Part shown: piece by piece, positions 2,845 through 18,619 of the stretch | How positions within the stretch are numbered: position 1 is the first letter of the stretch | Layout of the letters: every line of letters begins with the position of its first letter | Source of the DNA: Patescibacteria group bacterium | GTDB lineage: Bacteria; Patescibacteriota; 4484-211 | Assembly (NCBI GenBank): GCA_018824115.1 | Contig: JAHJGY010000022.1 | Location: 1 to 49,460 of the forward strand | Direction: 5' to 3' | DNA length: 49,460 bases | The notes under the pieces: model-generated | What the model saw: the letters and a program-made list of their open reading frames with translations, nothing else | The model's database searches: none | What the model was told of the DNA's origin: nothing | Translations under genes and position numbers: made by a program

Positions 2845-3855
2845 ATGGTGGACTCACTTTTTTATCGACTACTTAATATTGTTAGTGGAGTACTTGTGTT
2901 TTTAACGCTCGTCTCCCCTCCCCTGGTTTATGGTCAAGGGGTTCCGGTACTTAGCCTTGAGTTCCCCGAGGGATATAGTTCTGGGCCTTTTTCAGCTGGG
3001 GACCAGGTGGTTGTCGATCTTAAGTTTGACCCGGCGGGTTTAGAGATTCTCAATGCCGATGTTTTTATTCAGATTGATGATGGTGGCCTTCTAGAGCAAA
3101 ATTTGGTTTTGGATTCTGTGGAGCTTGTTGATTCGGAGCTAACGGTAGCACCTGGGTTGGTAGAGATAGTCAGTAATTCACGCAGCACAGACCAGATTGC
3201 TCTAATGGTGATTAAGGTTGTTGGTAGCGGTGCCGGAGCGATAGTGGAACCGATAACCCAAGAGGTTGTTATTGTTAGGCTCACATTTACGGTTGCTGAT
3301 GAAGTTAATATTACGGTAGCAGGGCTAAGATTTCTTGAAGGAACGAGTTTAATATTTACCTATCCTGTCGATGTGGAACCTGCTTTAAATAATTTGACAC
3401 TTACCATAATTCCTAGTGTTCCTACGCCCACATCTATGCCACCAACACCTATTCCTACGGAGATCCCATTTATTCCCGGGGATGGATCCCCTTTAGTGTT
3501 TTTTTCATTTGGATCATTAGCGACAGCAGTCTGTGAATCGCAGGTTTACCCCGAATGCGAGCTGCCTTGTACTACAGTGCCCGTTTTTAAGCGGTGTTTA
3601 AATTTGAACCAGTTTCTGAATCTAGCCATTTCTTGGAGTGCATTATTGGCGGTTTTGGTTTCTCTTGTTCGGTTAGCGGTTGGGACTTTCGGTTATATTA
3701 GTTCAACGGGTGATGCCAAAAAAATGGAGGAAGCTAGGATGACCATGATTTATGCTGTATTAGGCCTTATGATTATAGCTGTTGTTTGGCTATTTATAGT
3801 TATCGGACAGCAACTTGCTCCCGCTTCCTGGCAAATTTGGTTCGGGGGAGGATGA
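2845..3855 (+). CDS. cohesin-like module fused via a Pro/Thr linker to a Cys-rich, two-TM VirB2/TrbC-type pilin-like anchor
   Basis: 336-aa ORF with an N-terminal signal (VLVFLTLVSPPLVYGQG) and a beta-rich module that aligns by eye with the scaffoldin cohesins. A PT linker (SVPTPTSMPPTPIPTEIP) leads to a C-terminal Cys cluster plus two TM helices. Confidence 0.75.
   Translation: MVDSLFYRLLNIVSGVLVFLTLVSPPLVYGQGVPVLSLEFPEGYSSGPFSAGDQVVVDLKFDPAGLEILNADVFIQIDDGGLLEQNLVLDSVELVDSELTVAPGLVEIVSNSRSTDQIALMVIKVVGSGAGAIVEPITQEVVIVRLTFTVADEVNITVAGLRFLEGTSLIFTYPVDVEPALNNLTLTIIPSVPTPTSMPPTPIPTEIPFIPGDGSPLVFFSFGSLATAVCESQVYPECELPCTTVPVFKRCLNLNQFLNLAISWSALLAVLVSLVRLAVGTFGYISSTGDAKKMEEARMTMIYAVLGLMIIAVVWLFIVIGQQLAPASWQIWFGGG
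2941..3411 (+). other. cohesin-like domain (aa ~33-189 of the 2845..3855 product)
   Basis: GDQVVVDLKFDPAGLEILNADVFIQID parallels DDEMVVDINIIDTANLYGFQFDLAYD of scaffoldin cohesin 1. EVVIVRLTFTVADEVNITVAGLRF parallels GTLVGVRFRTLAAGTSVIDIQGLKL. Similarity is distant and judged by eye only. Confidence 0.45.
3532..3810 (+). other. VirB2/TrbC (T4SS pilin)-like Cys-rich double-TM anchor (aa ~230-322)
   Basis: CESQVYPECELPCTTVPVFKRC is followed by TM1 (AISWSALLAVLVSLVRLAVGTFGY), the loop ISSTGDAKKMEEARMT and TM2 (MIYAVLGLMIIAVVWLFIVIG). This matches my recollection of the small T4SS-pilin-like proteins common in CPR genomes. Confidence 0.45.
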
Positions 3856-3869
3856 ACTGAATTAAAAAG

Positions 3870-5726
3870 ATGTTTAAACAAAAAAAAGTTGCCCTTCGCC
3901 AGTTTATGTTTTGTTGCGTGATTCTAATATTGTCTTTTCTCCAAAAACATAAGGACACTAAAGCCCAAACTTGCAAGCATATTGTTTCTTCAAATGAAGA
4001 GTTGGTAAATGCTAATAATGCAGTTAATCCAGGAGAGATAGTATGTCTGGAGAGTGGAACATATAATGTGGGAATTGGCCCCTCTCATTCTGGTGCAGAC
4101 GGATTATATATCACTTATCAAGCGGTTCAAGGAGCGGTCCCAGTTATAACAGAACGATCATACCTCGATGATAAAAGCTATCTGGTTATCAAGGGCATCA
4201 GGTTTGAGTCTGACGGATATACATGGATATCGACGAGTGCAAATTCGCACCACATTCAACTTTTGGAGTGTGGATTTGACTCTTCTGAGGCTGGAAGTTA
4301 TAGCGGTATCTATATAAATGGATCGCAATATATCACCATTAGCGGCTCAACTTTTGGAAAGTGGATGTTTGGTAATGCAATTAGCGGTATGGGTGGTTCC
4401 CATATCCTTATTGAGGACAACGATTTTTCTCAGGCCATTGCTGAACATGGATTGGCTAACATAAGCGCTTCTGATCTAATTATTCGCAATAATTATTTTC
4501 GCAATCCTTGCGACAGAGCTCTTTCTCTTAGAGAGAAAAACAGTACTGCTGAAAATCTGCTCGTAGAAAACAATGTATTTATGGATAGTAATTGGAACAG
4601 AAAAGACTCTTGTTATGGAGAAGAACCTGGTTCAGAACAGGCTCTTAAATTCAATGTTTCCAAGGGAATTTTTCGTAACAATCTTGTTATAAATACCAAT
4701 GAAGGGAAAAATTATGACTATGGCGGCTCCCTCCATTTTTCAACTTATGAGGAGGTCCTAAAATACGAATACAATCGTGTTTATCATAATACATTTTACA
4801 AAAACAAACTTCATGCTATTACCTTTACTAGAAACACGGATACTTGGGATACTCGTAACAACAAAATTACAAATAATGTTATAGCTGAACACAATTTAAT
4901 AAATGATTTTACAAACAGCGATTGCAGTACGCCTGATGAGTGCAAAACTTATTCTGTGTATATTGGGAGGAGTGGCTTGAATTGGCAAACATATCTTTTT
5001 GATTTTAATGTTATTTCTGATTCCCGGAAAGATAATGTGATTTATATCGCTGATGGTGGCAAAGAACAAACTGTTGAAGAAGCCCAAATCAACCATCCAG
5101 ACCAATTTCAAAACAATATTATCCAACTTCCCCAATTCCAAAATGAAAATATCATGTATGACGCTGACCAATATCCTGAAAATTACTCTCTTGTAAACAT
5201 AGATGATTTTTTCGCTGGCTTTGCCCTTACATCGGATAGTTCAGGGAAATATGCAGCTACTCATTTAGCTGAGATTACCGCTTCTAGTACGGGTACAACG
5301 ATTCGGATAGACGATGCTTTATATTTCACCGATGGAATGGGAATGATCAATGGAGACAGAATTATTATTGGTTCTGATAATCAGGTTACAGTTCAGATAA
5401 CTAATGTAGATTATGAAAATAATATTCTAGAAGTGGATCAAGCTATTAGTGTTTTGGTCGGTGATAGAATTTATCTGGAAGCGACAGGAACAAGTCCTGA
5501 TATTGGGGTTTATGGCCGTGAAGGTAGTTTATTTCCTACTCCCCTCCCCTCAGTTGAAGGTGACCTCAACAACGATGGTGTAGTGGACATCTTTGACCTC
5601 GTTATTGTCGGCAGTTGTTTTGGGCAGGAAGCAGTCGGAGATTGCGCCCGCGCAGATGCCAACGGAAACGGTGTTGTGGATATTTTTGATCTGGTGTTGG
5701 TGGGTGGTAATTTTGGAACAAGTTAA
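3870..5726 (+). CDS. secreted right-handed beta-helix protein (polysaccharide lyase-like) with C-terminal dockerin
   Basis: 618-aa ORF with a signal-like N-terminus (FMFCCVILILSFL). The N-terminal motif IVSSNEELVNANNAVNPGEIVCLESGTYN and many NN-x-F/I-x-N turns are typical of parallel beta-helix lyases. It ends in a two-repeat dockerin. Confidence 0.85.
   Translation: MFKQKKVALRQFMFCCVILILSFLQKHKDTKAQTCKHIVSSNEELVNANNAVNPGEIVCLESGTYNVGIGPSHSGADGLYITYQAVQGAVPVITERSYLDDKSYLVIKGIRFESDGYTWISTSANSHHIQLLECGFDSSEAGSYSGIYINGSQYITISGSTFGKWMFGNAISGMGGSHILIEDNDFSQAIAEHGLANISASDLIIRNNYFRNPCDRALSLREKNSTAENLLVENNVFMDSNWNRKDSCYGEEPGSEQALKFNVSKGIFRNNLVINTNEGKNYDYGGSLHFSTYEEVLKYEYNRVYHNTFYKNKLHAITFTRNTDTWDTRNNKITNNVIAEHNLINDFTNSDCSTPDECKTYSVYIGRSGLNWQTYLFDFNVISDSRKDNVIYIADGGKEQTVEEAQINHPDQFQNNIIQLPQFQNENIMYDADQYPENYSLVNIDDFFAGFALTSDSSGKYAATHLAEITASSTGTTIRIDDALYFTDGMGMINGDRIIIGSDNQVTVQITNVDYENNILEVDQAISVLVGDRIYLEATGTSPDIGVYGREGSLFPTPLPSVEGDLNNDGVVDIFDLVIVGSCFGQEAVGDCARADANGNGVVDIFDLVLVGGNFGTS
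5559..5723 (+). repeat. dockerin-module coding repeat, copy 1 of 5
   Basis: GDLNNDGVVDIFDLVIVGSCFGQEAVGDCARADANGNGVVDIFDLVLVGGNFGTS: two DxNxDGxxDxxD-type Ca-binding loops, each followed by a helix. The DNA is near-identical to the other four copies. Confidence 0.85.
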
Positions 5727-5772
5727 ACTTGTCGGGGCTCAGCTTTGTTCAACTCGGTGTATACTAGAGAAT

Positions 5773-5892
5773 ATGCTTATGTTCAAGAAAAAGACAGTTT
5801 CCTGTTTGTTTTTAATCGCAATTATCATACTCGTTTTTAACTCGGCGCAGGTAAGTGTTAAAGGGCAAGACGACTGTACGGTTATTGTTGAT
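5773..5892 (+). repeat. signal-peptide cassette, copy 1 of 2 (pairs with 11719..11838)
   Basis: 120 nt encoding MLMFKKKTVSCLFLIAIIILVFNSAQVSVKGQDDCTVIVD. By eye it differs at about 6 positions from 11719..11838, after which the two genes are unrelated. Confidence 0.8.
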
Positions 5893-7455
5893 AGTTCTGG
5901 CGGGGGAGATTACTTGTCTATACAGGCAGGTTTGGATGCGAGTGAGCCGGGTGACACTATTTGCGTAAGAGGTTCAACTGATGCAGGAAATCCCCGAGTT
6001 TACAATGGCTATCTAAGATTAAATCAAAGTCACTCTGGGACAGTAGGAAATATTAAAACACTTAAAGCCGACGGATCCGTTTCTATCCAGAAAGGAGTCA
6101 GTGATAGCAGATGCCACGCTTTTGTGATTAACACAAGTATTAGTTATTTTACGATTGACGGCTTCGAAATCACTAATTTTGATTGCTTTGCTTTTCAGTT
6201 CGATAATGACGAGCAGTCCATAGATAATCCCTCGCAATACATTACCCTAAGGGATCTAAAAATTCACGATTTAGGGGCAAACGAGCCCGAGGGGTCTTTT
6301 ACAGGGACTCTTCTCAATTGCCAGCATGTGTTAATTGAAAACGTCGAGTTATACAGAAACGCTTCTGGTATTAACATAGGCGGGAATAGTTTTGATGTGG
6401 TAATAAGAAACAGTTCTAGCCACGATATGAGGCACCAATTGGATGGAGATGGATTTAATGCCAGTAATTGGGGTGAAGATGAAGTCGGCACAGATTATCA
6501 TCCCCACAATATCACCATTGAGGACACTTCAGTTTACAACAATGGCGAGGACGGTTTTGACTTTAAGGCAGATGATGTTACCTACCGTCGTTGTCGGAGT
6601 TACAATAATAGGGCTAGGGGCGTTGCGGTTAAGGGACTAAGACAAAAGATTGTAAACTCTCTGATTCATGGTAATGAGAAAAGTGTTAGTATTAGTGGTT
6701 GGAGAGATAGCAGTGTGGCCATTATTAACTCAACGCTTATTAGTGATTATGCAACGTTGTCGTATAGTGCCTATCCGTTTGTAATGGAGGCAGTGGTTAT
6801 AAATAGTATATTTATATCTCCAGACCGGACCGTGCAAATCCTTGAAGGACATAAGCTTTTCGGGGACAACAACATTTATTATAATAGTTCAAACGATGGC
6901 ACGGTGGTGGCTTATTATAGAGAATGGAACAACGGGGGTATTGGTAATGTTATAGAAACGTTTTACATGAATGATGTGAACTCTGGGCATTGGTCGTCAC
7001 AATTAGATTACTACGATGTGGGTGATAATACTGATTCAAATTCGCAGGGCATAAATCCCGCGTTTATTGATTTAGAAGGGTATAACTTGCAATTGCGTAG
7101 CGACTCAACAGCAATTGATGCTGGCGTACCAGATTACAGTTTTGCTGGGACTAGTTATCTTCCAGCATCCATTATAGAAATACCAACTATAGATATTGAT
7201 GGTAATCCGCGCGATTCTGATCCAGACATTGGTGCTTTTGAGTATATAGATGAAGCTGTCCCATCGCCCGGTCCCCTTCCCTCAGTTGAAGGAGATCTCA
7301 ATAGCGACGGAGTAGTGAACATCTTCGACCTCGTTATTATCGGCAATTGTTTTGGGCAGGAAGCAATAGGAACCTGCGCCCGTGCAGACGCCAACGGAAA
7401 CGGAGTGGTGGATATTTTTGATCTGGTAATTGTGGGTAGTCATTTTGGGCAGTAA
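5773..7455 (+). CDS. secreted right-handed beta-helix protein (pectate-lyase-fold) with C-terminal dockerin
   Basis: Start placed at ATG 5773 (MLMFKKKTVSCLFLIAIIILVF..., a signal peptide). The track start at 5593 would read through the preceding dockerin in another frame. Beta-helix motifs SIQAGLDASEPGDTICVRG, IRNSSSHDM and NITIEDTSVYNNGEDGFDFK. C-terminal dockerin. Confidence 0.85.
   Translation: MLMFKKKTVSCLFLIAIIILVFNSAQVSVKGQDDCTVIVDSSGGGDYLSIQAGLDASEPGDTICVRGSTDAGNPRVYNGYLRLNQSHSGTVGNIKTLKADGSVSIQKGVSDSRCHAFVINTSISYFTIDGFEITNFDCFAFQFDNDEQSIDNPSQYITLRDLKIHDLGANEPEGSFTGTLLNCQHVLIENVELYRNASGINIGGNSFDVVIRNSSSHDMRHQLDGDGFNASNWGEDEVGTDYHPHNITIEDTSVYNNGEDGFDFKADDVTYRRCRSYNNRARGVAVKGLRQKIVNSLIHGNEKSVSISGWRDSSVAIINSTLISDYATLSYSAYPFVMEAVVINSIFISPDRTVQILEGHKLFGDNNIYYNSSNDGTVVAYYREWNNGGIGNVIETFYMNDVNSGHWSSQLDYYDVGDNTDSNSQGINPAFIDLEGYNLQLRSDSTAIDAGVPDYSFAGTSYLPASIIEIPTIDIDGNPRDSDPDIGAFEYIDEAVPSPGPLPSVEGDLNSDGVVNIFDLVIIGNCFGQEAIGTCARADANGNGVVDIFDLVIVGSHFGQ
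7291..7452 (+). repeat. dockerin-module coding repeat, copy 2 of 5
   Basis: GDLNSDGVVNIFDLVIIGNCFGQEAIGTCARADANGNGVVDIFDLVIVGSHFGQ. Confidence 0.85.
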
Positions 7456-7479
7456 GAAAAGATTCTCATTTTAGGCAGC

Positions 7480-7508
7480 TTGACGAATCTCGATTTTCTT
7501 GATAGCTT
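7480..7508 (+). promoter_or_regulatory. putative promoter (TTGACG-N17-TAGCTT)
   Basis: TTGACG at 7480-7485, TAGCTT at 7503-7508, and ATG 11 nt downstream at 7520. The -10 match is weak. Confidence 0.3.
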
Positions 7509-7519
7509 GAGTGTGTACT

Positions 7520-9526
7520 ATGAAATTTCTCCGAGCTGTAACTGTCTTTTTTAATGTTTTTATTCTTCTGGTAAACCCTATCCTCATTTTAGCGGCGCCG
7601 CTCACAATTCACCCTAATAACCCTCGTTATTTTACCAATGACACCGGCCAGCCGATTTATATGACTGGTTCTCAGACTTGGTATAACATTCATCAAAATA
7701 CGACTATAGAAACCAATACAACAACATCTGAATATTTCGAAGAATATTTGGATTGGATGCAGTCTCATGGACATAATTTCACCCGCTTATGGACAGGGCT
7801 TAGCTACTTGGATAATCCACCCTTCCCCTGGAATCGCTCAGGGCCGGGTACTGCCAATGATGGCAACCCTCAGTTTGACATGCGCGCCTTTAACCAAAGT
7901 TATTTTGACGCCGTCAAGGAAAGGGTTTCTCAAATTCAATCTCGGGGAATGTACTGTTCGATTATGTTCTTTGGGTCGCACAATGGGTTGAAAAGTGATT
8001 TTATCAACACGGCTTGGCACCCCAATAATAATGTAAACGATGAATTAGATATTTTTGATAATGATGGCTACTTTTTTTTTACCACTGATCCAGAAGCCTT
8101 GGAAACCCAGCGGGCATTGGTTCGGAAATTTATAGACGAGTTGAATGATTTTGACAATCTTATTTGGGAGATTATGAATGAGCCTGGCGAGCAATCTGTG
8201 GAATGGCAGGAGGGAATGATTGAATATGTGAGATCGTACGAATTCAGCAAACCGAAACAGCATCTAATTGGGATGACCGGAGGCTGGAATCTTGGCGCCC
8301 AGATGCTCGAAAGTTCTGCCGAGTGGATTTCGCCAGATTGGGACTGGTACGTAGAAGGTCCAGGAGACTACCGTGAAGGCGGACCTGCCGATTTTTCCGA
8401 AAAGGTAATTATCAACGACACTGATCACCTTTGGGGTTGGTCAGAGCCCGAAAATGCTGAAGAGATGCGAAAATGGGTCTGGAAAACCTTCGCTCGAGGC
8501 AACAATTTGATTTTTATGGATTCGTATGATCATTATAGAGAAGATGTCGAGAACTACGGTGAGATTAACCATGATTGGGATTTGCTCAGGGATACAATGG
8601 GATATACAGTGGATTACTCTCAGAAATTTACTGACATGGCCGCTCTGATGCCTTCGGACAGTTCAACGGAATGTTCAACAACCTATTGTTTACAAAATCC
8701 AGGAATGGAGTATTTTGTGTATCAACCAAGTTCGGGAGAGTTCACAGTAAATCTCGAGCCTGGGAGTTACAATTACGAGTGGTTTAACCCTCAAGTGGGT
8801 AGTGTCTCGCAGACGGGATCGCGAAGTGTGAGTGGTGGAAATACCAGTTTTACGCCACCTTTTAGCGGTGATGCTGTACTCTATTTACAGGTTGTTGTTC
8901 TCACACCCTCTCCTGCATTAAGCCCTACTCCTCAGCCAACACCTGCGGGTGAAAAATTGACGGGGACAGTAATAGGGGTTTGTGAACCTTATGAGGGGAA
9001 TTCTGATACTAGCTACGGTGCAGCCGTGGACGGGAAAACGGAAACGTTTTCGGACTGCGTGGGTGATGAGATGTACGTGGGTTATGATTTTGGTGCAGGA
9101 AGCAATAAAATTATCAATAATATTCGTTATTGGCCTCGAGATGATTGGAATCAAAGAATGGTTGGGAGAACCTTCGAAGGATCACAGGATAATATTTCTT
9201 GGGTGACACTCTTCACAGTACAAACTGCTCCACCATATGACCAGTTTACAACTATTGCCATAGATGACAATACTCCTTTTCGGTTCGTTCGTTACAATGG
9301 TGCAGGTGGATATTTGAATGTCTCTGAAATTGAGTTCTATGGTATAGATGCTTCTTTAGACGGAGACTTAAATGGCAGCGGCACCGTTGACATCTTTGAC
9401 CTCGTTATTATCGGCAGTTGTTTTGGGCAGGAAGCAACTGGTGACTGCGCCCGCGCAGACGCCAACGGGGATGGAGAAGTGGATATTTTTGATTTGGTAA
9501 TTGTGGGTGGGAATTTTGGAGATTAG
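7520..9526 (+). CDS. secreted clan GH-A-like TIM-barrel glycosidase + discoidin/CBM32-like module + dockerin
   Basis: Start at ATG 7520 (MKFLRAVTVFFNVFILLV..., a signal). Motifs: IHPNNPRYFTNDTGQPIYMTGSQTW, acid/base-type WEIMNEPGE, and beta-sandwich FTVNLEPGSYNYEWFNP. A PT linker leads to an F5/8-type-C-like module (IRYWPRDDWNQRMVGRTFEGSQDNISW...FRFVRY) and the dockerin. Confidence 0.85.
   Translation: MKFLRAVTVFFNVFILLVNPILILAAPLTIHPNNPRYFTNDTGQPIYMTGSQTWYNIHQNTTIETNTTTSEYFEEYLDWMQSHGHNFTRLWTGLSYLDNPPFPWNRSGPGTANDGNPQFDMRAFNQSYFDAVKERVSQIQSRGMYCSIMFFGSHNGLKSDFINTAWHPNNNVNDELDIFDNDGYFFFTTDPEALETQRALVRKFIDELNDFDNLIWEIMNEPGEQSVEWQEGMIEYVRSYEFSKPKQHLIGMTGGWNLGAQMLESSAEWISPDWDWYVEGPGDYREGGPADFSEKVIINDTDHLWGWSEPENAEEMRKWVWKTFARGNNLIFMDSYDHYREDVENYGEINHDWDLLRDTMGYTVDYSQKFTDMAALMPSDSSTECSTTYCLQNPGMEYFVYQPSSGEFTVNLEPGSYNYEWFNPQVGSVSQTGSRSVSGGNTSFTPPFSGDAVLYLQVVVLTPSPALSPTPQPTPAGEKLTGTVIGVCEPYEGNSDTSYGAAVDGKTETFSDCVGDEMYVGYDFGAGSNKIINNIRYWPRDDWNQRMVGRTFEGSQDNISWVTLFTVQTAPPYDQFTTIAIDDNTPFRFVRYNGAGGYLNVSEIEFYGIDASLDGDLNGSGTVDIFDLVIIGSCFGQEATGDCARADANGDGEVDIFDLVIVGGNFGD
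9362..9523 (+). repeat. dockerin-module coding repeat, copy 3 of 5
   Basis: GDLNGSGTVDIFDLVIIGSCFGQEATGDCARADANGDGEVDIFDLVIVGGNFGD. Confidence 0.85.
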
Positions 9527-9621
9527 GTGCGGAGAAGGCCCTATCGAAAGCACAAAGCCTTGCTGGTTTGGCACGGATGGAAAGTTAACGGTAATCTACT
9601 GGTAATAGTGTTGCTCATCTT

Positions 9622-11700
9622 ATGCAGAAAAATATTAGTTATAAAATATCAATCCTTTTTTTAAGTATTGGAGTTTATCTAGGACAATTGTTAATTATGC
9701 CTCGAATAACTGTGGAAGCCGCTACCGACCTAAGAGTTGGTAGCAATGGCCGCTGGCTGGTAAAAAGGGACTCGAGTGAGCCCTTTTTTCTTATGACCGA
9801 TTCTGCCTGGCGGCTCCATGCGCTTTCCTCTGGCGAACAAGATACCTATTTTCAAAATAGACAAAGTAAAAAATTTAATGGCACCTATGTTGGATTAACA
9901 ACTTATTGGAATGATGTCGATGCAAGTAATGCAAATGGCGATCTTCCCTTTAATGATGATACTGATTGTCTTGATTGGAATTATGAATACTTTGAATTCT
10001 TTTCGGATATGGTAGAGAAAGCGGGCTCGTATGGCATTTACATTATTATTGAAATTGGAGAAGCGACTGACAGTCGAAGACCATTTTTTGTGGGTACTGG
10101 TAATATTTCAAAGGCAAAAGACTGGGGAAAAATGGTTGGAGAGTATTTTGGAAATCACGAAAATGCAATTTTTGCTCTAGGACAAGATAGGGATGCGGAT
10201 GAAGATGGTTTAGAGTTACACAGAGCAGTAGCAGAAGGTTTAGTAGAGGGTGTAACTGGTCGAGATATAAATTGGGACGAGTCGTCTTCTGCTTGGAACG
10301 AGGTTCTCTTAACATATCACCCTGCAGGGGGAATACTGAATTCGTCTGATTGGTTTCATAATGATCCATGGCTTGATTTTAATAGTATTGAGTTATATGG
10401 TGGGAGCAGGCAAGATGATATTTACCCAGAGATACAAAATGACTATAACAAATCTCCTACAAAACCTACGTGGGTGATTGAGGCAGCCTACGAGGATCGA
10501 GAATCCAGTGTCCCGGAAGATGATCCAAAGGTTGATGAGTATTGGATACGTTTTAGCGCATATCAGGGAGTTTTTGCCGGAGCATTTGGAACCAGCTATG
10601 GACATCATTATAACTACTATTTTCCTGATGATTGGAGAGACAAGCTCGACACGCCTGGGGCTTTGGACATGCCACATTTGTTCAATCTGATTAATAATAG
10701 TAATAGAAATTTTTCACTTCTTCAGCCTGACCAGAATGTTATTACCTCTTTGGTTGGGAGTGGATTTGAACGACGCGTGGCCGTAAGGGCCAGTAACGGA
10801 GCGTTTATATATGTGTATCTTCCCAGGGGAGGATCGGTTACGGTTGATATGACAAAAATATCAACCGGAGATGTTACTGCACAGTGGTACAATCCGCGCA
10901 ATGGTTCCTACTCAAGCATTGGAATGTATGCCAACAGTGGCACACGCTCGTTTTCTGCTGCAAGCAGTGGAAAGGGAAATGATTATGTTCTTGTGCTTAC
11001 TGGCGGCGAAACTTCAACACCTACTCCAACATCTACTCCCGCCTCAACACCAACGCCATTTCCAATTCCCACCCCATATGCAATTCCTGGAAGAGTTGAG
11101 GTAGAAAATTATAATGTGGGTGGGGAAGGACTTGCGTATCACGATACAACATCTGGCAATGAAGGTGGAGAATACAGGGATGAAGATGTGGATATTCAAA
11201 ATTGTGAGGATGAAGGTAGGGGTTATAACATTGGATGGATCAGGGAAGGCGAATGGCTTAAATATGATGTCGAAATTAGCGAGTCAGGGAATTATGAAGT
11301 GAGATTAAGAGTAGCTGGGGATACAGAAGTAAGCGGTTCTGTACATTTTGAGCTTGACGGAGAGAGGGTTACGGAGGATATTATAATTCCCAACACAGGT
11401 GGCTGGCAATCCTGGACGACAGTGAGTATAGATACAACACGAGAGCTTGTTTTAGGAAACCACACTCTAACCATTTATATGGGCGGAAATAGCTTTAATA
11501 TTAATTGGGTGGAGTTAGTTGGTTCGATAACCCCTGGCGACCTTAACAACGATGGCGTGGTTGACATCTTTGACCTGGTCATCATAGGCAGTTGTTTTGG
11601 GCAGGAAGCAGTCGGAGACTGCGCTCGCGCAGACGCCAACGGAAACGGAGTGGTGGATGTTTTTGATCTAGTGATAGTGGGAGGTAATTTTGGAGCGTAG
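9622..11700 (+). CDS. secreted DUF4038/GH140-like TIM-barrel glycosidase + CBM6-like module + dockerin
   Basis: N-terminal signal/anchor. EPFFLMTDSAWRLH and WVIEAAYE are typical of DUF4038-type barrels, and VTAQWYNPRNGSY of the accompanying beta-sandwich. After a PT linker comes a CBM6-like module (IPGRVEVENYNVGGEGLAYHD...TGGWQSWTTVS...FNINWVEL), then the dockerin. Confidence 0.85.
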   Translation: MQKNISYKISILFLSIGVYLGQLLIMPRITVEAATDLRVGSNGRWLVKRDSSEPFFLMTDSAWRLHALSSGEQDTYFQNRQSKKFNGTYVGLTTYWNDVDASNANGDLPFNDDTDCLDWNYEYFEFFSDMVEKAGSYGIYIIIEIGEATDSRRPFFVGTGNISKAKDWGKMVGEYFGNHENAIFALGQDRDADEDGLELHRAVAEGLVEGVTGRDINWDESSSAWNEVLLTYHPAGGILNSSDWFHNDPWLDFNSIELYGGSRQDDIYPEIQNDYNKSPTKPTWVIEAAYEDRESSVPEDDPKVDEYWIRFSAYQGVFAGAFGTSYGHHYNYYFPDDWRDKLDTPGALDMPHLFNLINNSNRNFSLLQPDQNVITSLVGSGFERRVAVRASNGAFIYVYLPRGGSVTVDMTKISTGDVTAQWYNPRNGSYSSIGMYANSGTRSFSAASSGKGNDYVLVLTGGETSTPTPTSTPASTPTPFPIPTPYAIPGRVEVENYNVGGEGLAYHDTTSGNEGGEYRDEDVDIQNCEDEGRGYNIGWIREGEWLKYDVEISESGNYEVRLRVAGDTEVSGSVHFELDGERVTEDIIIPNTGGWQSWTTVSIDTTRELVLGNHTLTIYMGGNSFNINWVELVGSITPGDLNNDGVVDIFDLVIIGSCFGQEAVGDCARADANGNGVVDVFDLVIVGGNFGA
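11536..11697 (+). repeat. dockerin-module coding repeat, copy 4 of 5
   Basis: GDLNNDGVVDIFDLVIIGSCFGQEAVGDCARADANGNGVVDVFDLVIVGGNFGA. Confidence 0.85.
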
Positions 11701-11718
11701 CTAGATTTGACTAAAAAT

Positions 11719-11838
11719 ATGCTTATGTTCAAGAAAAAGATAGTTTCCTGTTTGTTTTTAATCGCAATTATCATACTCGCTTTTGACTCTGCGCAGGTAA
11801 GTGTTAAAGGGCAAGATGACTATACGGTTATTGTTGAT
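11719..11838 (+). repeat. signal-peptide cassette, copy 2 of 2 (pairs with 5773..5892)
   Basis: Encodes MLMFKKKIVSCLFLIAIIILAFDSAQVSVKGQDDYTVIVD. Near-identical DNA to 5773..5892. Confidence 0.8.
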
Positions 11839-13848
11839 GCTAATGAGCCTGTCTCAAGAAACCAATCTTTGAAAGGGCAGGTTTTGCAGGCAAGTGATGC
11901 CAAGACTGGGTATATTCACATGGATCCTTCAGGGAAGGGATTTGTTTACGAAGGAGGGGCGAAATTTATTCCTGTTGGTCACAATGCGCACACTGTATAC
12001 AAAAGGGAATGGCAAGACGATCCAGTTACTGGCAGAGAATATATTTCTCGGTTAGGGGCACGCATTGAAAGAGATGGGTGTACGGATTGGTGTGGGGATG
12101 GGTGTTTACCCGAAACTGAAGGCTTAACCTATGACGAATGGTTTTCACAGTTGGAGGAATCGGGTGTCAACAGCCTGCGTTTGCACTTTAGTTCCAATGT
12201 TTGGCGGCCTGGTGTGCACCCTTTGCCAGTTGGTAAATACAACGTTATGGATGAGCAGGTTTGCGCCATGCTGGATGGCGCTAGAAGTAACGCCGATGGG
12301 TTCCAGGATAAACAGATTGACGGGGAAGACTTAATGATAAACTATCCGAGTTGCAGATGGCCAGATTTTTCCAATGAAAACTGCGGCCCCCTATACGGAC
12401 CCAAGCTACGCAAGAGTCTAATTACTCGAATGCTTGCATCTGCAGAAAGCCACAGCGTAAAGCTAAAAATTGTTTTTTTCGGAACAGATGGCTGGAGTGG
12501 TGACCCCTATGAAGATAATGGTAATTTTAATTGGAACAGCTGGGAAATCAATCCCTTTAACAGCGCTAATTGCCGACACGACGATCCCGGAAGATGCGGG
12601 CCTATTAGCAACAGGTTCGACTTTTGGACCAACGGAACTTGGAACTCGCCACTCTTTTCAGAAGAATCTGCCATAAATTATGCCAAAAGATATGTGGCGT
12701 TTATAATGCACGTTTGGGGAGACAGCACCGCTATTTGGGACTGGGAATTGTGGAACGAAATTAATTACGCCTCCATCTCCTACGGCCACGAGCAGGAAAT
12801 GGCCAATTGGGTAAACAACATGGCTGCTTATGTCAAATCAAATGATCTTCATCACCGCCCTGTTTCCATAAGTTCCTACAATCTTAGCACTAGCACGGAC
12901 AACCAGCAAAAAATGCAAGTATTTGCCTCACCAAACATTGATTACGTCCAATGGCACTACTACCCACGGGACGAAGATGCCAGTGTCCAATACGCCCTTC
13001 AGGCCACAAGAGATATGGAAGATATTTACAACAAGCCGGCTTTTATCGGAGAATTCTGGCCATGGACTGCCCAGATGGGTCCAATTGAACAAGATGTAAC
13101 TGGCATCTTTATTGAAGACAGCCAAAAGGACGATCCTCCCCACGAGGAATATCCATACCGTCCGAGTTTAGCCAGACTTTGGCTACAACTGATTTCTTCT
13201 GGGACTAGTGTTTCTCATCGTTGGCATGAACCAGGATTAACGGGAATTCGCTATTGGGAAGTTCATCGGCTTTATCAAGGCGTGGCCAAATTTATCAACG
13301 TTGTTTCTTGGGATAGTTGGAACTTAGCTAATTCAATTCCCTGGGAAGATTTTATTACTGGGGATATCGATTTTGTTGCTGGGCGGGGTGATGGAGATCA
13401 GATTTTTGCCATGATTCATGGTATAGGTGATTCTGTAAATGTAGAAATCAATAATCTTGATGATGGGACTTATGTTGTGAGATCTTTTGATTTTATTTCT
13501 GGAGAGGTGGCGGAAGTCTACAATGGTCAACAGACATTTGGGAGCACTTTGAGTCTCTCGTTTAGTTTATCTAACTCAACATTAGATGTCGGAAATGACG
13601 GGTATGACAGGAGGAGAGTAGGAATTTTTCTTATAGAAAAAGAGGACATGGGTGTTCCCACTCCCCTCCCCTCGGTTGAAGGAGACCTCAATAATGATGG
13701 TATCGTTGACATTTTCGATCTCGTTATTATCGGCAGTTGTTTTGGGCAGGAAGCAGTCGGAGACTGCGCTCGCGCGGACGCCAACGGAAACGGAGTGGTG
13801 GATGTTTTTGATTTGGTAATTGTGGGTAGTCATTTTGGTATTTGGTAA
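11719..13848 (+). CDS. secreted clan GH-A (GH5-like) glycosidase with C-terminal dockerin
   Basis: Start at ATG 11719, with the same signal peptide as the 5773 gene. Motifs: WELWNEINY (acid/base-type NE) and AFIGEFWPW (nucleophile-type E). C-terminal dockerin. Confidence 0.85.
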   Translation: MLMFKKKIVSCLFLIAIIILAFDSAQVSVKGQDDYTVIVDANEPVSRNQSLKGQVLQASDAKTGYIHMDPSGKGFVYEGGAKFIPVGHNAHTVYKREWQDDPVTGREYISRLGARIERDGCTDWCGDGCLPETEGLTYDEWFSQLEESGVNSLRLHFSSNVWRPGVHPLPVGKYNVMDEQVCAMLDGARSNADGFQDKQIDGEDLMINYPSCRWPDFSNENCGPLYGPKLRKSLITRMLASAESHSVKLKIVFFGTDGWSGDPYEDNGNFNWNSWEINPFNSANCRHDDPGRCGPISNRFDFWTNGTWNSPLFSEESAINYAKRYVAFIMHVWGDSTAIWDWELWNEINYASISYGHEQEMANWVNNMAAYVKSNDLHHRPVSISSYNLSTSTDNQQKMQVFASPNIDYVQWHYYPRDEDASVQYALQATRDMEDIYNKPAFIGEFWPWTAQMGPIEQDVTGIFIEDSQKDDPPHEEYPYRPSLARLWLQLISSGTSVSHRWHEPGLTGIRYWEVHRLYQGVAKFINVVSWDSWNLANSIPWEDFITGDIDFVAGRGDGDQIFAMIHGIGDSVNVEINNLDDGTYVVRSFDFISGEVAEVYNGQQTFGSTLSLSFSLSNSTLDVGNDGYDRRRVGIFLIEKEDMGVPTPLPSVEGDLNNDGIVDIFDLVIIGSCFGQEAVGDCARADANGNGVVDVFDLVIVGSHFGIW
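13681..13845 (+). repeat. dockerin-module coding repeat, copy 5 of 5
   Basis: GDLNNDGIVDIFDLVIIGSCFGQEAVGDCARADANGNGVVDVFDLVIVGSHFGIW. Confidence 0.85.
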
Positions 13849-13909
13849 TATTTAAATATAGGCATTAGGTGCGCAATTGGTATACGGACTTGACAAGGCC
13901 AGTCCGTGT

Positions 13910-13939
13910 TTGACATACTCTAACTGTAGCTTCTATATC
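13910..13939 (+). promoter_or_regulatory. putative promoter (TTGACA-N18-TATATC)
   Basis: TTGACA at 13910-13915 (a second TTGACA lies at 13890-13895), TATATC at 13934-13939, and ATG at 13943. Sequence match only. Confidence 0.3.
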
Positions 13940-13942
13940 GAG

Positions 13943-14209
13943 ATGGAGAATTTTGATCATAAAGAAAATTTTATGGAAGCGGGCACAAATTTCCCCAAAG
14001 TGTCCCCGAGTAGCAGGAAATTCCAGTTTTTATTAGCAGTTATTCTTTTGTTGTTAGTCTTTTTTTTCCCGATAAATGGTAGATCGCTGTTAGATAGATT
14101 AGTAGACTGGAAACAAGAAAGAGTGGTAAATTTGGTTCCAAACCCATCTTTTGAGGAGGGCCTTGATAACCAGCCAGCAGGATGGACAACCAAGAGTCGA
14201 AGTTTGTGA
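13943..14209 (+). CDS. small single-TM protein ending in an orphan NPSFE...GW jelly-roll strand (paralog A); possibly a gene relic
   Basis: The first ATG of ORF 13877..14209 gives 88 aa. TM helix LLAVILLLLVFFFPI, then ...VVNLVPNPSFEEGLDNQPAGWTTKSRSL and a stop. Paralogous to the next ORF. Confidence 0.4.
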   Translation: MENFDHKENFMEAGTNFPKVSPSSRKFQFLLAVILLLLVFFFPINGRSLLDRLVDWKQERVVNLVPNPSFEEGLDNQPAGWTTKSRSL

Positions 14210-14246
14210 GGGTACACAGGCCTTTGATGTTGGTTCAGTATTAAAT

Positions 14247-14537
14247 ATGGAAGGAATTATTCCAGAGGAACAACTGAAACAAGAGAGTCCATTAGAAAAT
14301 GAGGTTCATGATGATCTTGCCAAGTTGCTTTTTAGGAAGAGGTATATTTACATTATTGTTGCTATGGCAGTTCTTTTCTTGTTCTTCTTCCCTATCGGTG
14401 AAAAGTCACTGATAGAGCGATTAGCAGAATTGGGTAAGCAGAAGGCAGAGAATCTAGTTCCGAATCCGAGCTTTGAAAAAGGTTCGGGGGATGAGCCGGC
14501 TGGCTGGACGACGAAAAGTAAATATTCTTCCGAGTAA
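14247..14537 (+). CDS. small single-TM protein ending in an orphan NPSFE...GW jelly-roll strand (paralog B); possibly a gene relic
   Basis: An internal ATG of ORF 14151..14537 (MEGIIPEEQ...) gives 96 aa. TM helix IIVAMAVLFLFFFPI, then ...AENLVPNPSFEKGSGDEPAGWTTKSKYSSE. The TAA stop ends 2 nt before the scaffoldin ATG. Confidence 0.4.
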   Translation: MEGIIPEEQLKQESPLENEVHDDLAKLLFRKRYIYIIVAMAVLFLFFFPIGEKSLIERLAELGKQKAENLVPNPSFEKGSGDEPAGWTTKSKYSSE

Positions 14538-14539
14538 TC

Positions 14540-17359
14540 ATGCAACGTAAAATAGCTATAACCATTAGTGTTTTTGTTCTAGCGCTACTTCTCCCTGTTA
14601 TGGGTGCGGCGCAAGTTGTAGGTTGTGAATATGAGTGGGCTAGTGATTATTTCCACACTGGAGATCGCTCTCTTAAAATTCAAAGTGATGATCCGGGCAC
14701 TGCCTGTAGTTGGGTGAGCGAGGAGGGGGTTGAGGTGACAGCGGGTGAGGAGTATGAGATATCGGGCTGGATTAGAACAGAAGATGTAAATGGTGCTGCG
14801 GTAGTTGAGGTTGTGTTCTACGGTGGTACTGGCACTGAGGTTTTCAGGGAATCGACGCCGGAGTTAGATGGGACGACAAGTAATCCGGACGAGAATGATT
14901 TTGTCGAGAGAACAGCTAGCGCGATTGCGCCTGCGAGCGCAGTAAGCGCGGTATTGGAGTTAACGCTAATAGGAACAGGAATAGTTTGGTTCGATGATGT
15001 TTCTATGAGCCAGGTTTCGGGTGAAGCGAACACAGTTAGGGTGGCGCCGGAGATGCAAACAGTGGGTATTGATGATGAAATGGTCGTAGATATTAATATA
15101 ATAGATACGGCGAATTTGTATGGATTTCAATTTGATCTTGCCTATGATTCGTCCATTCTAGAGTACATTTCCTTGGAAAGAGGAACATTTATTGGTGATT
15201 CGTATAGTACTTACTGGGTTGCTTTAAATACTGGTACCCCGGGGTTAATTGGTAGTATTGCTGTGACGCGAACAACTCCTGGCGAAACAGTATCTGGCTC
15301 GGGAACACTGGTGGGCGTGAGGTTCAGAACTCTGGCAGCGGGAACCTCAGTAATTGATATTCAGGGTCTTAAATTATCAGATGATGATGCAAACGAGATC
15401 TTGTCAACAGCGCAGGATGGCACTGTTATTGTAGCTGGAGAGATAACTCCTCCATCACAGCCCACGCCGACCCCGATACCGACATCTATACCAACCCCAA
15501 CCCCAACTATACCGATACCTACGCCTACGGCGGTGCCTACAGTTACACCCACGGTAGCACCAACAGTGGTGCCCACATTGGCGCCAACGCCAACGCCAAC
15601 GCCTACCATACCGATACCTACGCCTACAACGGCGCCTGCAGTTACACCCACGGTAGCACCAACGGTGACGCCCACATTGGCACCAATACCGACGTTAACA
15701 CCTACACCCCCACCCGAGGATTCCTGTCTTTATGAGTGGGCTACTGATTATTATCGGTCACCGGATCACTCATTAAAAGTCTATAGTGATGACCCGGCTT
15801 CTACTTGCAGTTGGGTTTCCGAGGATCCAATATCAGTTAACGCTGGTAAAGAATACGAATTGGTCGGGTGGATTCGAACAGAGAATGCGGCCGACGGTGT
15901 GTACTTGGAAATAGTGTTTTACGATAGTAATGGTGACGAACTTATGAGAAAGGCGACCTTAGAGGTGATTGGTACGACGGGAGTTTTTGTTGAGAGGAAG
16001 GTTAGTGCGGTAGCACCTTCTGGAAGCATGAGTGTAGCAATAGAACTAACTCTGACGGGAATTGGGACAGCGTGGTTTGACGATATCTCTTTTTCCGAGG
16101 TGTCTATTGAACCGAATACAGTTAAAGTATCACCCGATTCACAAACCGTTGCAGTTGGTGATGCAGTGTCTGTGGATATTAACGTAGTTGAAGTTTCTGA
16201 CCTATATGGATTCCAATTTGATATAACCTATGGATCGACGATATTGGAATTTGCTTCGTTAGAACGTGGGCTTTTTATTGGAGATGCGGACAGTACTTAT
16301 TGGGTTAGTGAAGATACCAGTAGTGCTGGTGTAATTAGGAATATTGCCGCGACACGGACTATTCCCGGAGTAGCTGTTTCGGGGTCAGGTACATTAATTA
16401 CTCTCACATTTAATGCTGTTGCTAGTGGAAGTTCAAGTATTAGAATCGAGAATTTGAAGCTGGCTGGCAGTAATGCCGAAGAAATACCTTCTACGGCTGT
16501 GAGTGGAGTTGTTGTTGTTTCTACAGGAGAGAACGAGTTGCCATTAGTAGATTTAAAGGCAGACAGTTTAGACGGGTCGATTACTATTCCCATTAATAAC
16601 ACTGTTGCCCTTTCCTGGACTTCTGAAAATGCTACCAGTTGTGTGGGTTCGGGAGATTGGTCAGGAGTGAAGCCGCTGGTTGGGCTGGAAGAAACTGGTA
16701 ATTTGACATCTCAGAAGTTTTACACACTAACCTGCACCGGTTCAGGAGGAACAGCTTCGGATAGCGTGACTGTTAACATAGGAGCTACGCCGACACTTTA
16801 TACCAGTTTGCAAGTGGCTGTTGATTCAATGAATTGGCAGAATAGTTTATCGGGCAGTGCTCCCCTGAATGGCGTTGATTTGAAGGCAACGGTGGAGCAG
16901 TGCACGATAAACTATACCTTTTGGTGCCATTGTGCCGATTCCGGTTTGAGCGTTTCAAAGACCATCGAAAAGTGCGGAATTCCCGATTATAAGGTAGATG
17001 GGACTCATCAGAATCCGATGGTGGCAGATGATTTATGTGACTATTCTTTTTCTGGGATCTATACTGCGAAGGTGATTGTGGAAAAATACCTTTCCGAACC
17101 AGTAGAAGATAGAGCTACAATTCTTGTTGCTCCCGAAACGAGCCCGCCACCAGTTTCCCCGATTCCGACACCTGTACCGAGTGATAAGTATGATGTTAAC
17201 GGTGATGGGGTTGTGAATATAGATGACCTTAAGGCGGTAATCAATTGTTGGGGAAAATCTTACTGCCTACCGCTGGAAACGGATATCAACGGAGATGGAA
17301 TCGTCAACGGATGGGATGTAATTGAGTTAACTCGTTATCTAATTGCCCAGAAATTCTAA
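14540..17359 (+). CDS. scaffoldin-like protein: signal, [CBM-like jelly roll + cohesin] x2 joined by a PT linker, Ig-like and PKD-like modules, divergent C-terminal dockerin
   Basis: 939-aa ORF with signal peptide MQRKIAITISVFVLALLLPVMGAAQ. The two-unit internal duplication covers aa 29-299 and aa 396-661. Cohesin hallmarks are LYGFQFDLAYDSSILEYISLERGTFIGD and LYGFQFDITYGSTILEFASLERGLFIGD. Ig-like module VALSWTSENATSCVGSGDWSG...YTLTCTGSGGTASDSVTV. C-terminal DVNGDGVVNIDD...DINGDGIVNGWD. Confidence 0.85.
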   Translation: MQRKIAITISVFVLALLLPVMGAAQVVGCEYEWASDYFHTGDRSLKIQSDDPGTACSWVSEEGVEVTAGEEYEISGWIRTEDVNGAAVVEVVFYGGTGTEVFRESTPELDGTTSNPDENDFVERTASAIAPASAVSAVLELTLIGTGIVWFDDVSMSQVSGEANTVRVAPEMQTVGIDDEMVVDINIIDTANLYGFQFDLAYDSSILEYISLERGTFIGDSYSTYWVALNTGTPGLIGSIAVTRTTPGETVSGSGTLVGVRFRTLAAGTSVIDIQGLKLSDDDANEILSTAQDGTVIVAGEITPPSQPTPTPIPTSIPTPTPTIPIPTPTAVPTVTPTVAPTVVPTLAPTPTPTPTIPIPTPTTAPAVTPTVAPTVTPTLAPIPTLTPTPPPEDSCLYEWATDYYRSPDHSLKVYSDDPASTCSWVSEDPISVNAGKEYELVGWIRTENAADGVYLEIVFYDSNGDELMRKATLEVIGTTGVFVERKVSAVAPSGSMSVAIELTLTGIGTAWFDDISFSEVSIEPNTVKVSPDSQTVAVGDAVSVDINVVEVSDLYGFQFDITYGSTILEFASLERGLFIGDADSTYWVSEDTSSAGVIRNIAATRTIPGVAVSGSGTLITLTFNAVASGSSSIRIENLKLAGSNAEEIPSTAVSGVVVVSTGENELPLVDLKADSLDGSITIPINNTVALSWTSENATSCVGSGDWSGVKPLVGLEETGNLTSQKFYTLTCTGSGGTASDSVTVNIGATPTLYTSLQVAVDSMNWQNSLSGSAPLNGVDLKATVEQCTINYTFWCHCADSGLSVSKTIEKCGIPDYKVDGTHQNPMVADDLCDYSFSGIYTAKVIVEKYLSEPVEDRATILVAPETSPPPVSPIPTPVPSDKYDVNGDGVVNIDDLKAVINCWGKSYCLPLETDINGDGIVNGWDVIELTRYLIAQKF
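15029..15436 (+). other. cohesin domain 1 (aa ~164-299)
   Basis: NTVRVAPEMQTVGIDDEMVVDINIIDTANLYGFQFDLAYDSSILEYISLERGTFIGD...GSGTLVGVRFRTLAAGTSVIDIQGLKLSD. The pattern matches cohesin modules as I recall them. Confidence 0.65.
15506..15703 (+). repeat. 99-nt tandem duplication inside the Pro/Thr linker (2 copies)
   Basis: TIPIPTPTAVPTVTPTVAPTVVPTLAPTPTPTP is followed directly by TIPIPTPTTAPAVTPTVAPTVTPTLAPIPTLTP. The DNA copies are near-identical. Confidence 0.85.
16112..16522 (+). other. cohesin domain 2 (aa ~525-661)
   Basis: NTVKVSPDSQTVAVGDAVSVDINVVEVSDLYGFQFDITYGSTILEFASLERGLFIGD...GSGTLITLTFNAVASGSSSIRIENLKLAG. Confidence 0.65.
17186..17344 (+). other. divergent dockerin at the scaffoldin C-terminus (aa ~883-935)
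   Basis: YDVNGDGVVNIDDLKAVINCWGKSYCLPLETDINGDGIVNGWDVIELTRYLI has two DxNGDGxVNxxD loops. Its helices and linker are unrelated to the five enzyme dockerins. Confidence 0.7.
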
Positions 17360-17448: not shown

Positions 17449-17538
17449 AGAGGTAGTCGTGGGATTTAAAGAACCCGCCGGATCGACGGGTTAATTCGGT
17501 CGGTGGTCCGATTTTACATTGGACTGGACTTCAATTTA

Positions 17539-18588: not shown

Positions 18589-18619
18589 CGAGTTGTAAAT
18601 ACCTTCATTATTTTTATCT

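Follow-up and report, generated by a model that had tools for sequence, protein, structure and literature searches.

A compact cohesin-dockerin gene block in a Patescibacteria genome, with a proposed mode of assembly and membrane tethering

Gene content and modules of the block

The DNA studied here is a stretch of 49,460 nucleotides (nt) from a Patescibacteria group bacterium (contig JAHJGY010000022.1 of assembly GCA_018824115.1), which was analysed as a whole and is referred to below as the window. Nine closely packed genes of the + strand fill its positions 2845-17359 and encode a putative anchoring protein (protein A), five secreted enzymes (E1-E5), two small membrane proteins (s1 and s2) and a scaffoldin. 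An earlier reading of the letters (the original prediction) had described this block as a compact cellulosome-like cohesin-dockerin system, and the clustering and common orientation of the enzyme and scaffoldin genes were found as claimed there. The gaps between the genes of the block are 2-95 nt and the layout appears operon-like. A simple terminator scan found no convincing terminator inside the block, and a promoter/terminator scan was uninformative, the number of sites not exceeding that of shuffled sequence.

As predicted, each of the five enzymes ends in a dockerin, the Pfam model Dockerin_1 (gathering cut-off 22.9 bits) being exceeded in 5/5 cases with 26.7-32.4 bits: E1 28.4 (positions 5559-5726), E2 32.4 (7291-7455), E3 30.3 (9362-9526), E4 29.6 (11536-11700) and E5 26.7 (13681-13848). 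A sixth dockerin (36.8 bits), absent from the original prediction, forms the C-terminus of the scaffoldin (17186-17356). When the regular expression of the calcium loop, D.[NDS].[DNS]G.[IVLA][NDST]..D, was run over the six frames of the 49 kb, it gave 12 matches, all of them in the C-termini of these six block genes. The pattern D-x-N-x-D-G-x-x-D-x-x-D is present in both repeats of the enzyme dockerins, and the best PDB match of all dockerins is the dockerin 2y3n_B. The enzyme dockerins are 73-94% identical to each other (at the DNA level, dockerin and linker correspond to five copies of a 184-nt direct repeat with 73-86% identity), whereas the catalytic parts are mutually unrelated. Such homogenisation of dockerins joined to unrelated catalytic parts suggests the module shuffling typical of cellulosomal enzyme sets.

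Two types of dockerin can be told apart. Those of the enzymes are internally symmetric, with 'IF' at loop positions 10-11 in both repeats, whereas the dockerin of the scaffoldin is divergent and asymmetric, with ID and GW at these positions. Since the two types differ at recognition positions, two binding specificities are implied, and with them a two-tier layout as in hierarchical cellulosomes. A Cys pair in or beside the inter-repeat linker is conserved in all six dockerins (GSCFGQEAVGDCARAD in the enzymes, NCWGKSYC in the scaffoldin); extracellular disulfides may stabilise the dockerins and also the truncated jelly rolls described below.

The scaffoldin (939 amino acids (aa); 14540-17359, +) is composed of a signal peptide, a truncated module resembling carbohydrate-binding modules (CBMs) (module 1, 14615-15037), cohesin 1 (15038-15439), a Pro/Thr linker with a 99-nt tandem repeat (15491-15688), a second truncated CBM-like module (module 2, 15713-16111), cohesin 2 (16112-16525), two Ig/PKD-like domains and the divergent dockerin. 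The claim of two cohesins, each preceded by a CBM-like jelly roll (here of CBM4/16/22-like type), was borne out: two stretches match Pfam Cohesin (E 6.2e-19, 69 bits against a cut-off of 24.1), and among solved structures, cellulosomal cohesins are matched by a profile built from this clade (6kgc_A along its whole length, E 7.8e-6; 3l8q_A, E 6e-9). No catalytic domain was found in the 939 aa, and Pfam detected no CBM3 in them. The parts list is that of the architectural definition of a cohesin-dockerin enzyme complex, i.e. dockerin-bearing enzymes and a non-catalytic scaffoldin with at least two cohesins.

The enzymes, all encoded on the + strand, are of three kinds. E1 (618 aa; 3870-5726, repeat copy 5533-5716) and E2 (about 560 aa; 5773-7455 from the ATG at 5773, in an open reading frame (ORF) that opens at 5593; repeat copy 7265-7448) are beta-helix proteins. 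E1, a right-handed, lyase-like beta-helix with a type-I-like dockerin, matches Pfam Beta_helix (E 8.5e-8) and, weakly and with its N-terminus, chondroitinase B (PDB 1dbg, E 0.004); E2 matches an NCBIfam choice-of-anchor Q domain (27 bits) and a NosD-like beta-helix. E3 (671 aa; 7511-9526, repeat copy 9336-9519) combines a clan GH-A barrel of GH5/GH140-like type (Pfam Cellulase 28.2 bits, Apiosidase 32.1 bits), a Collagen_bind_2 beta-sandwich and a CBM62-like module; this module matches PDB 2yb7 (a module of Clostridium thermocellum Xyl5A; E 7.9e-21), which was deposited as 'carbohydrate binding family 6' and is presumably the galactose-binding CBM62. E4 (692 aa; 9622-11700, repeat copy 11510-11693) is a clear homologue of GH140 apiosidases with CBM6: its apiosidase-like catalytic domain (Pfam Apiosidase, E 1.5e-52; PDB apiosidase 8t9w, E 8.5e-50; 3kzs/5msy, E 3.5e-28) is followed by Collagen_bind_2 and CBM_6 (E 5.7e-22). 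E5 (713 aa; 11707-13848 with a probable ATG at 11719, repeat copy 13655-13838) carries a distant, weakly GH5-like barrel (PDB 9gmj, E 2.4e-7; GH5 mannanase 1uuq, E 6e-6). The 5' ends of the E2 and E5 genes (5770-5892 and 11716-11838, +) are 95% identical over 123 nt and encode the signal peptide MLMFKKK(T/I)VSCLFLIAIIIL. Beyond this segment and the dockerin the two enzymes are unrelated, which points to recent recombination or gene conversion at both ends of these genes.

Searches against Pfam, PDB and NCBIfam revealed neither GH48 nor GH9 among the enzymes of the block, and the set is predicted to be non-cellulolytic. Pfam found no SLH domain in any block protein, and no LPXTG-type sorting signal was seen in the block translations, for which no explicit search was made. 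Given the lack of GH48, GH9, CBM3, SLH and a sortase signal, the system is cellulosome-like in its architecture and apparently aimed at complex non-cellulosic glycans, and it falls short of the true cellulosomes, whose hallmark the original prediction saw in a clustered set of this kind. The substrate would be a pectin/rhamnogalacturonan II-like glycan or a uronan, or else a host's or neighbour's exopolysaccharide or cell-envelope glycan, and the complex would feed a cell of minimal metabolism.

The assembly that we infer is as follows. The five enzymes, exported by the Sec pathway, would dock by their dockerins, in a calcium-dependent manner, onto the two cohesins of the bivalent scaffoldin, so that two of the five would be held per scaffold at any moment. 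The scaffoldin would in turn be tethered by its own dockerin through protein A (route a), by s1 and s2 through its jelly rolls (route b), or by both. The best explanation of the block overall, and in our judgement a probable one, is a genuine compact cohesin-dockerin multi-enzyme display system in Patescibacteria (the Candidate Phyla Radiation, CPR), with assembly and tethering as proposed. Points against this explanation, besides those given below for the two tethers, are that the binding of the enzyme dockerins to the scaffoldin cohesins is argued from co-location and dockerin homogenisation only, and that a substrate is established for none of E1, E2 and E5.

Host lineage and related loci

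The host is a Patescibacteria/CPR bacterium with a reduced genome, which agrees with the CPR-like affiliation proposed from the housekeeping genes. The best named matches of its threonyl-tRNA synthetase are 'Patescibacteria group bacterium' and 'candidate division WWE3 bacterium' (65-66% identity), and further matches are named Nealsonbacteria, Parcubacteria and Paceibacterota. The closest homologue of the scaffoldin (P0004; 49% identity, 95% coverage) is a 'cohesin domain-containing protein [Patescibacteria group bacterium]' from a metagenome-assembled genome (MAG). In a set of 185,579 species-representative genomes, only this Patescibacteria MAG and a Saccharibacteria MAG had cohesins closely related (>60% identity) to those of the window.

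Cellulosomes being classically found in Firmicutes, the block might not be native to a CPR genome but result from chimeric assembly or from recent transfer out of a Firmicute, and a slight dip of the GC content (0.39-0.42) at 4-8 kb would fit this. The GC content nevertheless stays at 0.39-0.46 across the block region, with an unbroken GC skew, and an independent Logan assembly joins the same scaffoldin to the downstream PilM, rpsP and rnc genes; together, these observations make chimerism or contamination unlikely. Moreover, the closest homologues are all from Patescibacteria, with no Firmicute match coming close, and the type of anchor in protein A (see below) is characteristic of CPR. We regard a foreign origin of the block as hardly credible.

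Comparable loci were found on other contigs. In a related Patescibacteria lineage (L001/L048; GCA_018818265.1 contig JAHISN010000051.1 and Ga0180007_10011545), two dockerin enzymes, two small ORFs and a scaffoldin are present. The dockerin proteins differ from those of the window (one is a BNR_4 protein, and of the other, which also bears a dockerin, L048 has the C-terminal end), and an AlbA_2/HATPase_c_4 (Schlafen-like) gene lies between their genes on the opposite strand. The enzyme cargo therefore varies between lineages around a conserved core of small ORFs and scaffoldin. Another contig (L002) encodes the end of a dockerin enzyme, one small ORF, and a protein in which an enzyme domain, a truncated CBM, a cohesin and a T4SS_pilin anchor are combined.

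The cohesin subtype of the block (with the motif NLYGFQFD) has more distant members in DPANN archaea, Poribacteria, Bryobacteraceae, Chloroflexota and others, and most such modules are uncharacterised. From this it could be argued that the cohesins and dockerins of the window are 'non-cellulosomal' orphans, such as occur here and there in bacteria and archaea, and that they neither bind each other nor form a complex. Such a view is very unlikely to be right, as it has to account for five enzymes with homogenised dockerins encoded beside a multi-cohesin protein, for two distinct dockerin types, and for an arrangement that is kept in other Patescibacteria contigs; together these make up the defining pattern of functional systems. 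In contrast, we hold with high confidence that the block encodes a functional cohesin-dockerin system for enzyme display.

Candidate membrane tethers of the scaffoldin

Protein A (336 aa; 2845-3855, +), the product of the first gene of the block, is composed of a signal peptide, an orphan all-beta module (aa ~28-190; 2926-3414), a Pro/Thr linker, a Cys-rich segment and a VirB2/T4SS_pilin-like anchor with two transmembrane (TM) helices (aa ~255-325). The anchor scores 22.3 bits with Pfam T4SS_pilin (PF18895), below the cut-off of 26.6, and matches an NCBIfam pilin-like conjugal transfer protein (E 0.0022). It is homologous to the C-terminus of a relative (P0006; BLASTP E 1.2e-9) that itself passes the T4SS_pilin cut-off with 33.6 bits, and two hydrophobic helices are visible in its sequence. 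Protein A is thus predicted to have a real VirB2-like two-TM anchor; no virB4 was seen within the 49-kb window. The original prediction had placed a cohesin-like module on a membrane anchor, of which the anchor held, whereas the cohesin found no significant match.

Along route (a), the divergent C-terminal dockerin of the scaffoldin would bind the N-terminal beta-module of protein A, which would sit in the membrane by its VirB2-like anchor. The best argument for this binding comes from relatives (P0006, P0005 and L007) in which cohesins are fused straight to the anchor family of protein A and a terminal dockerin is absent. The window encodes anchor and cohesins on two different proteins, the cohesin-bearing one having acquired a dockerin; this is a pattern of domain fission. 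In addition, a partial homologue of protein A on a metagenome contig (L047; 41% identity over 223 aa, E 2e-50) adjoins, as well, a pair of a small ORF and a secreted protein.

The N-terminal module itself has few relatives. A word-seeded search of 5.8e9 proteins returned only the module itself, a HMMER scan of 1.84e9 representatives only the module and a low-complexity repeat protein (P0002), and phmmer against the PDB nothing. Several comparisons speak against its being a cohesin: BLASTP against the scaffoldin found nothing, a clade-specific cohesin hidden Markov model (HMM) gave a non-significant 4 bits, and hhalign against cohesins gave a probability of 2.9%, which was not significant either with a two-sequence profile including the L047 homologue. 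Furthermore, the sole structural model, a single-sequence AlphaFold2 model, reached a predicted local distance difference test (pLDDT) score of 43.6, which makes the Foldseek list obtained with it unreliable. Despite its low probability, the hhalign alignment is collinear over the full length, and in the Foldseek list (best E 1.5e-3, none reaching E 1e-3) cohesins occupy ranks 2, 7, 8, 10 and 14-17, mixed with Ig domains of Gram-positive pilins. We consider the identity of this module as a cohesin plausible but unproven, at about even chances, and give the same even chances to protein A being the cohesin-type anchor of the complex.

It is also conceivable, if rather unlikely, that the enzyme and scaffoldin part is real and protein A is not its anchor. 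Protein A would then belong to the VirB2-like surface or pilin proteins, which are hypervariable and common in CPR, its beta-domain would be unrelated, and the scaffoldin dockerin would bind a cohesin encoded elsewhere or on another cell, or the scaffoldin would be held only by s1 and s2, or released. VirB2-like pilins are indeed numerous, widespread and hypervariable in CPR, with an average identity of only 25% within arrays (bioRxiv 10.1101/2025.01.22.634366). The orphan character of the N-terminal module and its missing cohesin signal agree with this, and so do proteins of other lineages (P0015 and P0022) that have cohesin and dockerin with no A-like partner in view. Against it stand the position of the A gene, which opens the block 14 nt upstream of E1, the repeated neighbourhood on L047, the relatives with the anchor on the scaffoldin itself and no terminal dockerin, and the cohesins among the best Foldseek matches to the weak model.

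Route (b) concerns the two small ORFs, s1 (13877-14209, probable ATG 13943, +) and s2 (14151-14537, probable ATG 14247, +), which had been overlooked in the original prediction. The product of each has a short tail in the cytoplasm, a single TM helix and some 50 aa of ectodomain, ending in NLVPNPSFE(E/K)G...PAGWTTKS (in s1, NLVPNPSFEEG..PAGWTTKS). As CBM_4_9/CBM16/CBM22-type jelly rolls, the modules of the scaffoldin are incomplete, since profile positions 1-21, including the N-x-G-F-E strand, are missing; judged by their alignment, both jelly rolls are without the very N-terminal ~21 residues in which s1 and s2 end. This was seen with an HMM built from nine intact CBM_4_9-type modules: 5/5 CBM-like modules of the scaffoldin family (two from the window, two from P0004 and one from P0006) match only its positions 22/24-140 (E 1e-9 to 1e-17; 1e-12 to 1e-13 for those of the window), and of the five small ORFs tested, four cover positions 1 to 18-21 (s1, 1-19) and the fifth, from L002, gives a weak match to positions 5-13.

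The pattern recurs beyond the window. Small ORFs and truncated modules are equal in number in all four loci in which a count of both is possible: 2:2 (window), 2:2 (L001/L048), 1:1 (L002) and 0:0 (L003); an ortholog of the L003 protein (L007) is likewise without CBM-like modules, with no more than 8 nt of its contig upstream. L001 (4120-4814), L002 (243-563) and L047 (1241-1528) have homologous small ORFs at the matching place. The distance from the small ORF to the gene of the downstream secreted protein is a 2-nt gap in the window and in L001, 7 nt in L002 and an ATGA overlap in L047, which suggests that the last small ORF is translationally coupled to this gene, an arrangement conserved at ~40-67% protein identity.

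In the proposed route (b), s1 and s2 would each donate in trans the N-terminal segment of about 21 residues (NLxPNxxFExG...GW) that is missing from one scaffoldin module. A chimera of the s2 ectodomain and module 1 was modelled with a pLDDT of 92.7 and a predicted TM-score (pTM) of 0.88, with low confidence only at the artificial junction (residues 21-30), and in Foldseek the model matches CBM16/CBM4/CBM22 structures (2zey, E 2.7e-11, TM 0.7-0.8). Pfam CBM_4_9 appears, at 15.7 bits (cut-off 25.9), only when the C-terminus of s2 is prepended to module 1; no CBM_4_9 match was obtained with Pfam for the chimera of s1 and module 2. Identity matrices of small-ORF types against module types gave no signal of orthologous pairing.

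Some observations count against route (b). The small-ORF matches to the HMM are weak one by one (E 0.006-0.03), the split into small ORF and module was found in four lineages only, and the alignment used for the chimera held intact homologues, so that its confident fold indicates compatibility and not trans-assembly. The truncated modules also keep a Cys pair (C.YEW...C[SA]W), which may stabilise them partnerless. The Cys pair and the weak matches, and the fact that no trans-complemented CBM is known to us, favour an account in which s1 and s2 do not pair structurally with the scaffoldin and would be small membrane proteins in their own right (e.g. RsgI-like sensors, remnants of a gene split, or regulators), and in which the truncated jelly rolls would be self-sufficient X-modules. 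We give this account a little less than an even chance. It leaves unaccounted for the split exactly at HMM position 21/22 in 5/5 modules and 4/5 small ORFs tested, the agreement of the counts in four loci, the conserved translational coupling, and the internal position of module 2, whose missing segment cannot come from the scaffoldin's own chain. As to RsgI-like sensors in particular, an RsgI/anti-sigma reading of the small ORFs was rejected, as they gave no Pfam or NCBIfam match and no sigma factor is encoded nearby; in a Pfam scan of the small ORFs, the other block genes and 20 flanking ORFs, no domain of RsgI, of an anti-sigma factor or of a sigma factor came up. That s1 and s2 tether the scaffoldin to the membrane by trans-complementing split jelly rolls, as a natural 'tag/catcher', is put forward as a tentative possibility, and this tether may act jointly with the link from the dockerin to the VirB2-like anchor, in what would be an episymbiotic bacterium of ultra-small size.

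Upstream of the block, a 668-aa membrane or secreted protein (236-2242, +), with an OmpL47-type domain and without a dockerin, carries an unsplit CBM_4_9-like module (NQILNPSFESGGWKW...), which indicates that the genome also retains unsplit jelly rolls.

Neighbouring genes, known systems and biological meaning

Type IV pilus genes (17503-19872, +) begin 143 nt past the scaffoldin gene. They encode PilM (E 2.3e-46), PilN (a weak match, 20.2 bits against a cut-off of 22.8) and, in the position of PilO, a third ORF product with no family match. CPR bacteria attach to their hosts by type IV pili (PMC10633639; bioRxiv 10.1101/2025.01.22.634366), and pilus genes directly downstream are compatible with a role of the block in surface interaction; attachment and enzyme display may be linked. 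Two other genes lie farther along the window. The first (27679-33093, -) specifies an 1804-aa alpha-2-macroglobulin-like protein whose bait region and A2M domain are separated by a Hint/intein-like insertion (aa ~1050-1180), which starts at G|CFLQGTPV and ends at YVHN|E. Because the +1 residue is Glu instead of Cys, Ser or Thr, the insertion resembles bacterial intein-like (BIL) domains more than splicing inteins. The second (47215-49179, +) specifies a 654-aa secreted protein with BNR/Sortilin-like repeats and a lipase/PGAP1-like alpha/beta hydrolase, without a dockerin.

The closest parallels of the block are the cellulosomes of Clostridia (C. thermocellum CipA/SdbA-OlpB, C. acetobutylicum CipA and Pseudobacteroides cellulosolvens ScaA/ScaB). 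Common to both are: (i) enzymes ending in duplicated calcium-loop dockerins, (ii) a non-catalytic scaffoldin with cohesins, CBM-like modules and Pro/Thr linkers, (iii) clustered genes, and (iv) a second, divergent dockerin on the scaffoldin, by which a two-tier hierarchy is implied. The best PDB matches of the block also come from there (2y3n, a P. cellulosolvens cohesin-dockerin; 6kgc, a C. acetobutylicum cohesin). The differences are that the host is here a CPR bacterium with a reduced genome, that only two cohesins are present, that GH48, GH9 and CBM3 are absent and the enzymes are GH140-like, GH5-like and beta-helix proteins, and that an SLH or sortase anchor is replaced by a two-TM anchor of VirB2-like type, perhaps along with small TM proteins completing split jelly rolls. 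Non-cellulosomal cohesin-dockerin systems, such as the Ruminococcus bromii amylosome, the Archaeoglobus fulgidus pair and the glycosidase complexes of Clostridium perfringens, resemble the block as we read it: enzymes for non-cellulosic glycans are brought together by cohesin-dockerin pairs, outside the classical cellulolytic lineages. To our knowledge, neither a VirB2-like anchor nor a split CBM partner is on record for any of them, and none has been detailed for CPR.

[quoted passage not shown] The mere presence of such modules in CPR is thus already known, and the claim of an unusual host, correct as far as the CPR affiliation goes, is softened by the mention of Kantor et al. These earlier reports resemble ours in annotating cohesins and dockerins in the same superphylum and in reading them as means of degrading complex carbon or host glycans, but they are one-line annotations without a scaffoldin/enzyme/anchor architecture, dockerin typing or split-module partners. 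The literature searched on CPR cohesins, dockerins and scaffoldins gave passing mentions only, the matches to 'scaffoldin' being the word 'scaffolding'; not found described in it were (i) typed dockerins within a full two-tier architecture from a CPR genome, (ii) a VirB2-like membrane anchor replacing SLH or sortase, and (iii) a conserved split jelly roll with membrane-anchored complementing peptides.

Incomplete folds completed by a short segment of another chain occur in the donor-strand complementation of chaperone-usher pili and in engineered split domains (SpyTag/SpyCatcher, split GFP). The tether proposed here would be alike in that an incomplete beta-sandwich and a segment from a second chain form a stable link; it would differ in that the fold is a CBM4/16/22-type jelly roll and the donor a predicted single-pass membrane protein. 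If true, the split-jelly-roll tether would be a natural, ligation-free 'catcher/tag' pair of possible use in synthetic scaffolds, and a previously undescribed mode of anchoring.

The CPR (Patescibacteria) make up a large share of bacterial diversity and consist of cells of minimal metabolism that are mostly attached to other cells. How they acquire carbon and act on host surfaces is largely unknown, and the minimal system presented here, with five enzymes, a bivalent scaffold and membrane tethers, would extend cohesin-dockerin biology to new anchoring solutions and offers a concrete model of how CPR cells may harvest extracellular glycans or attack the envelope of their hosts.

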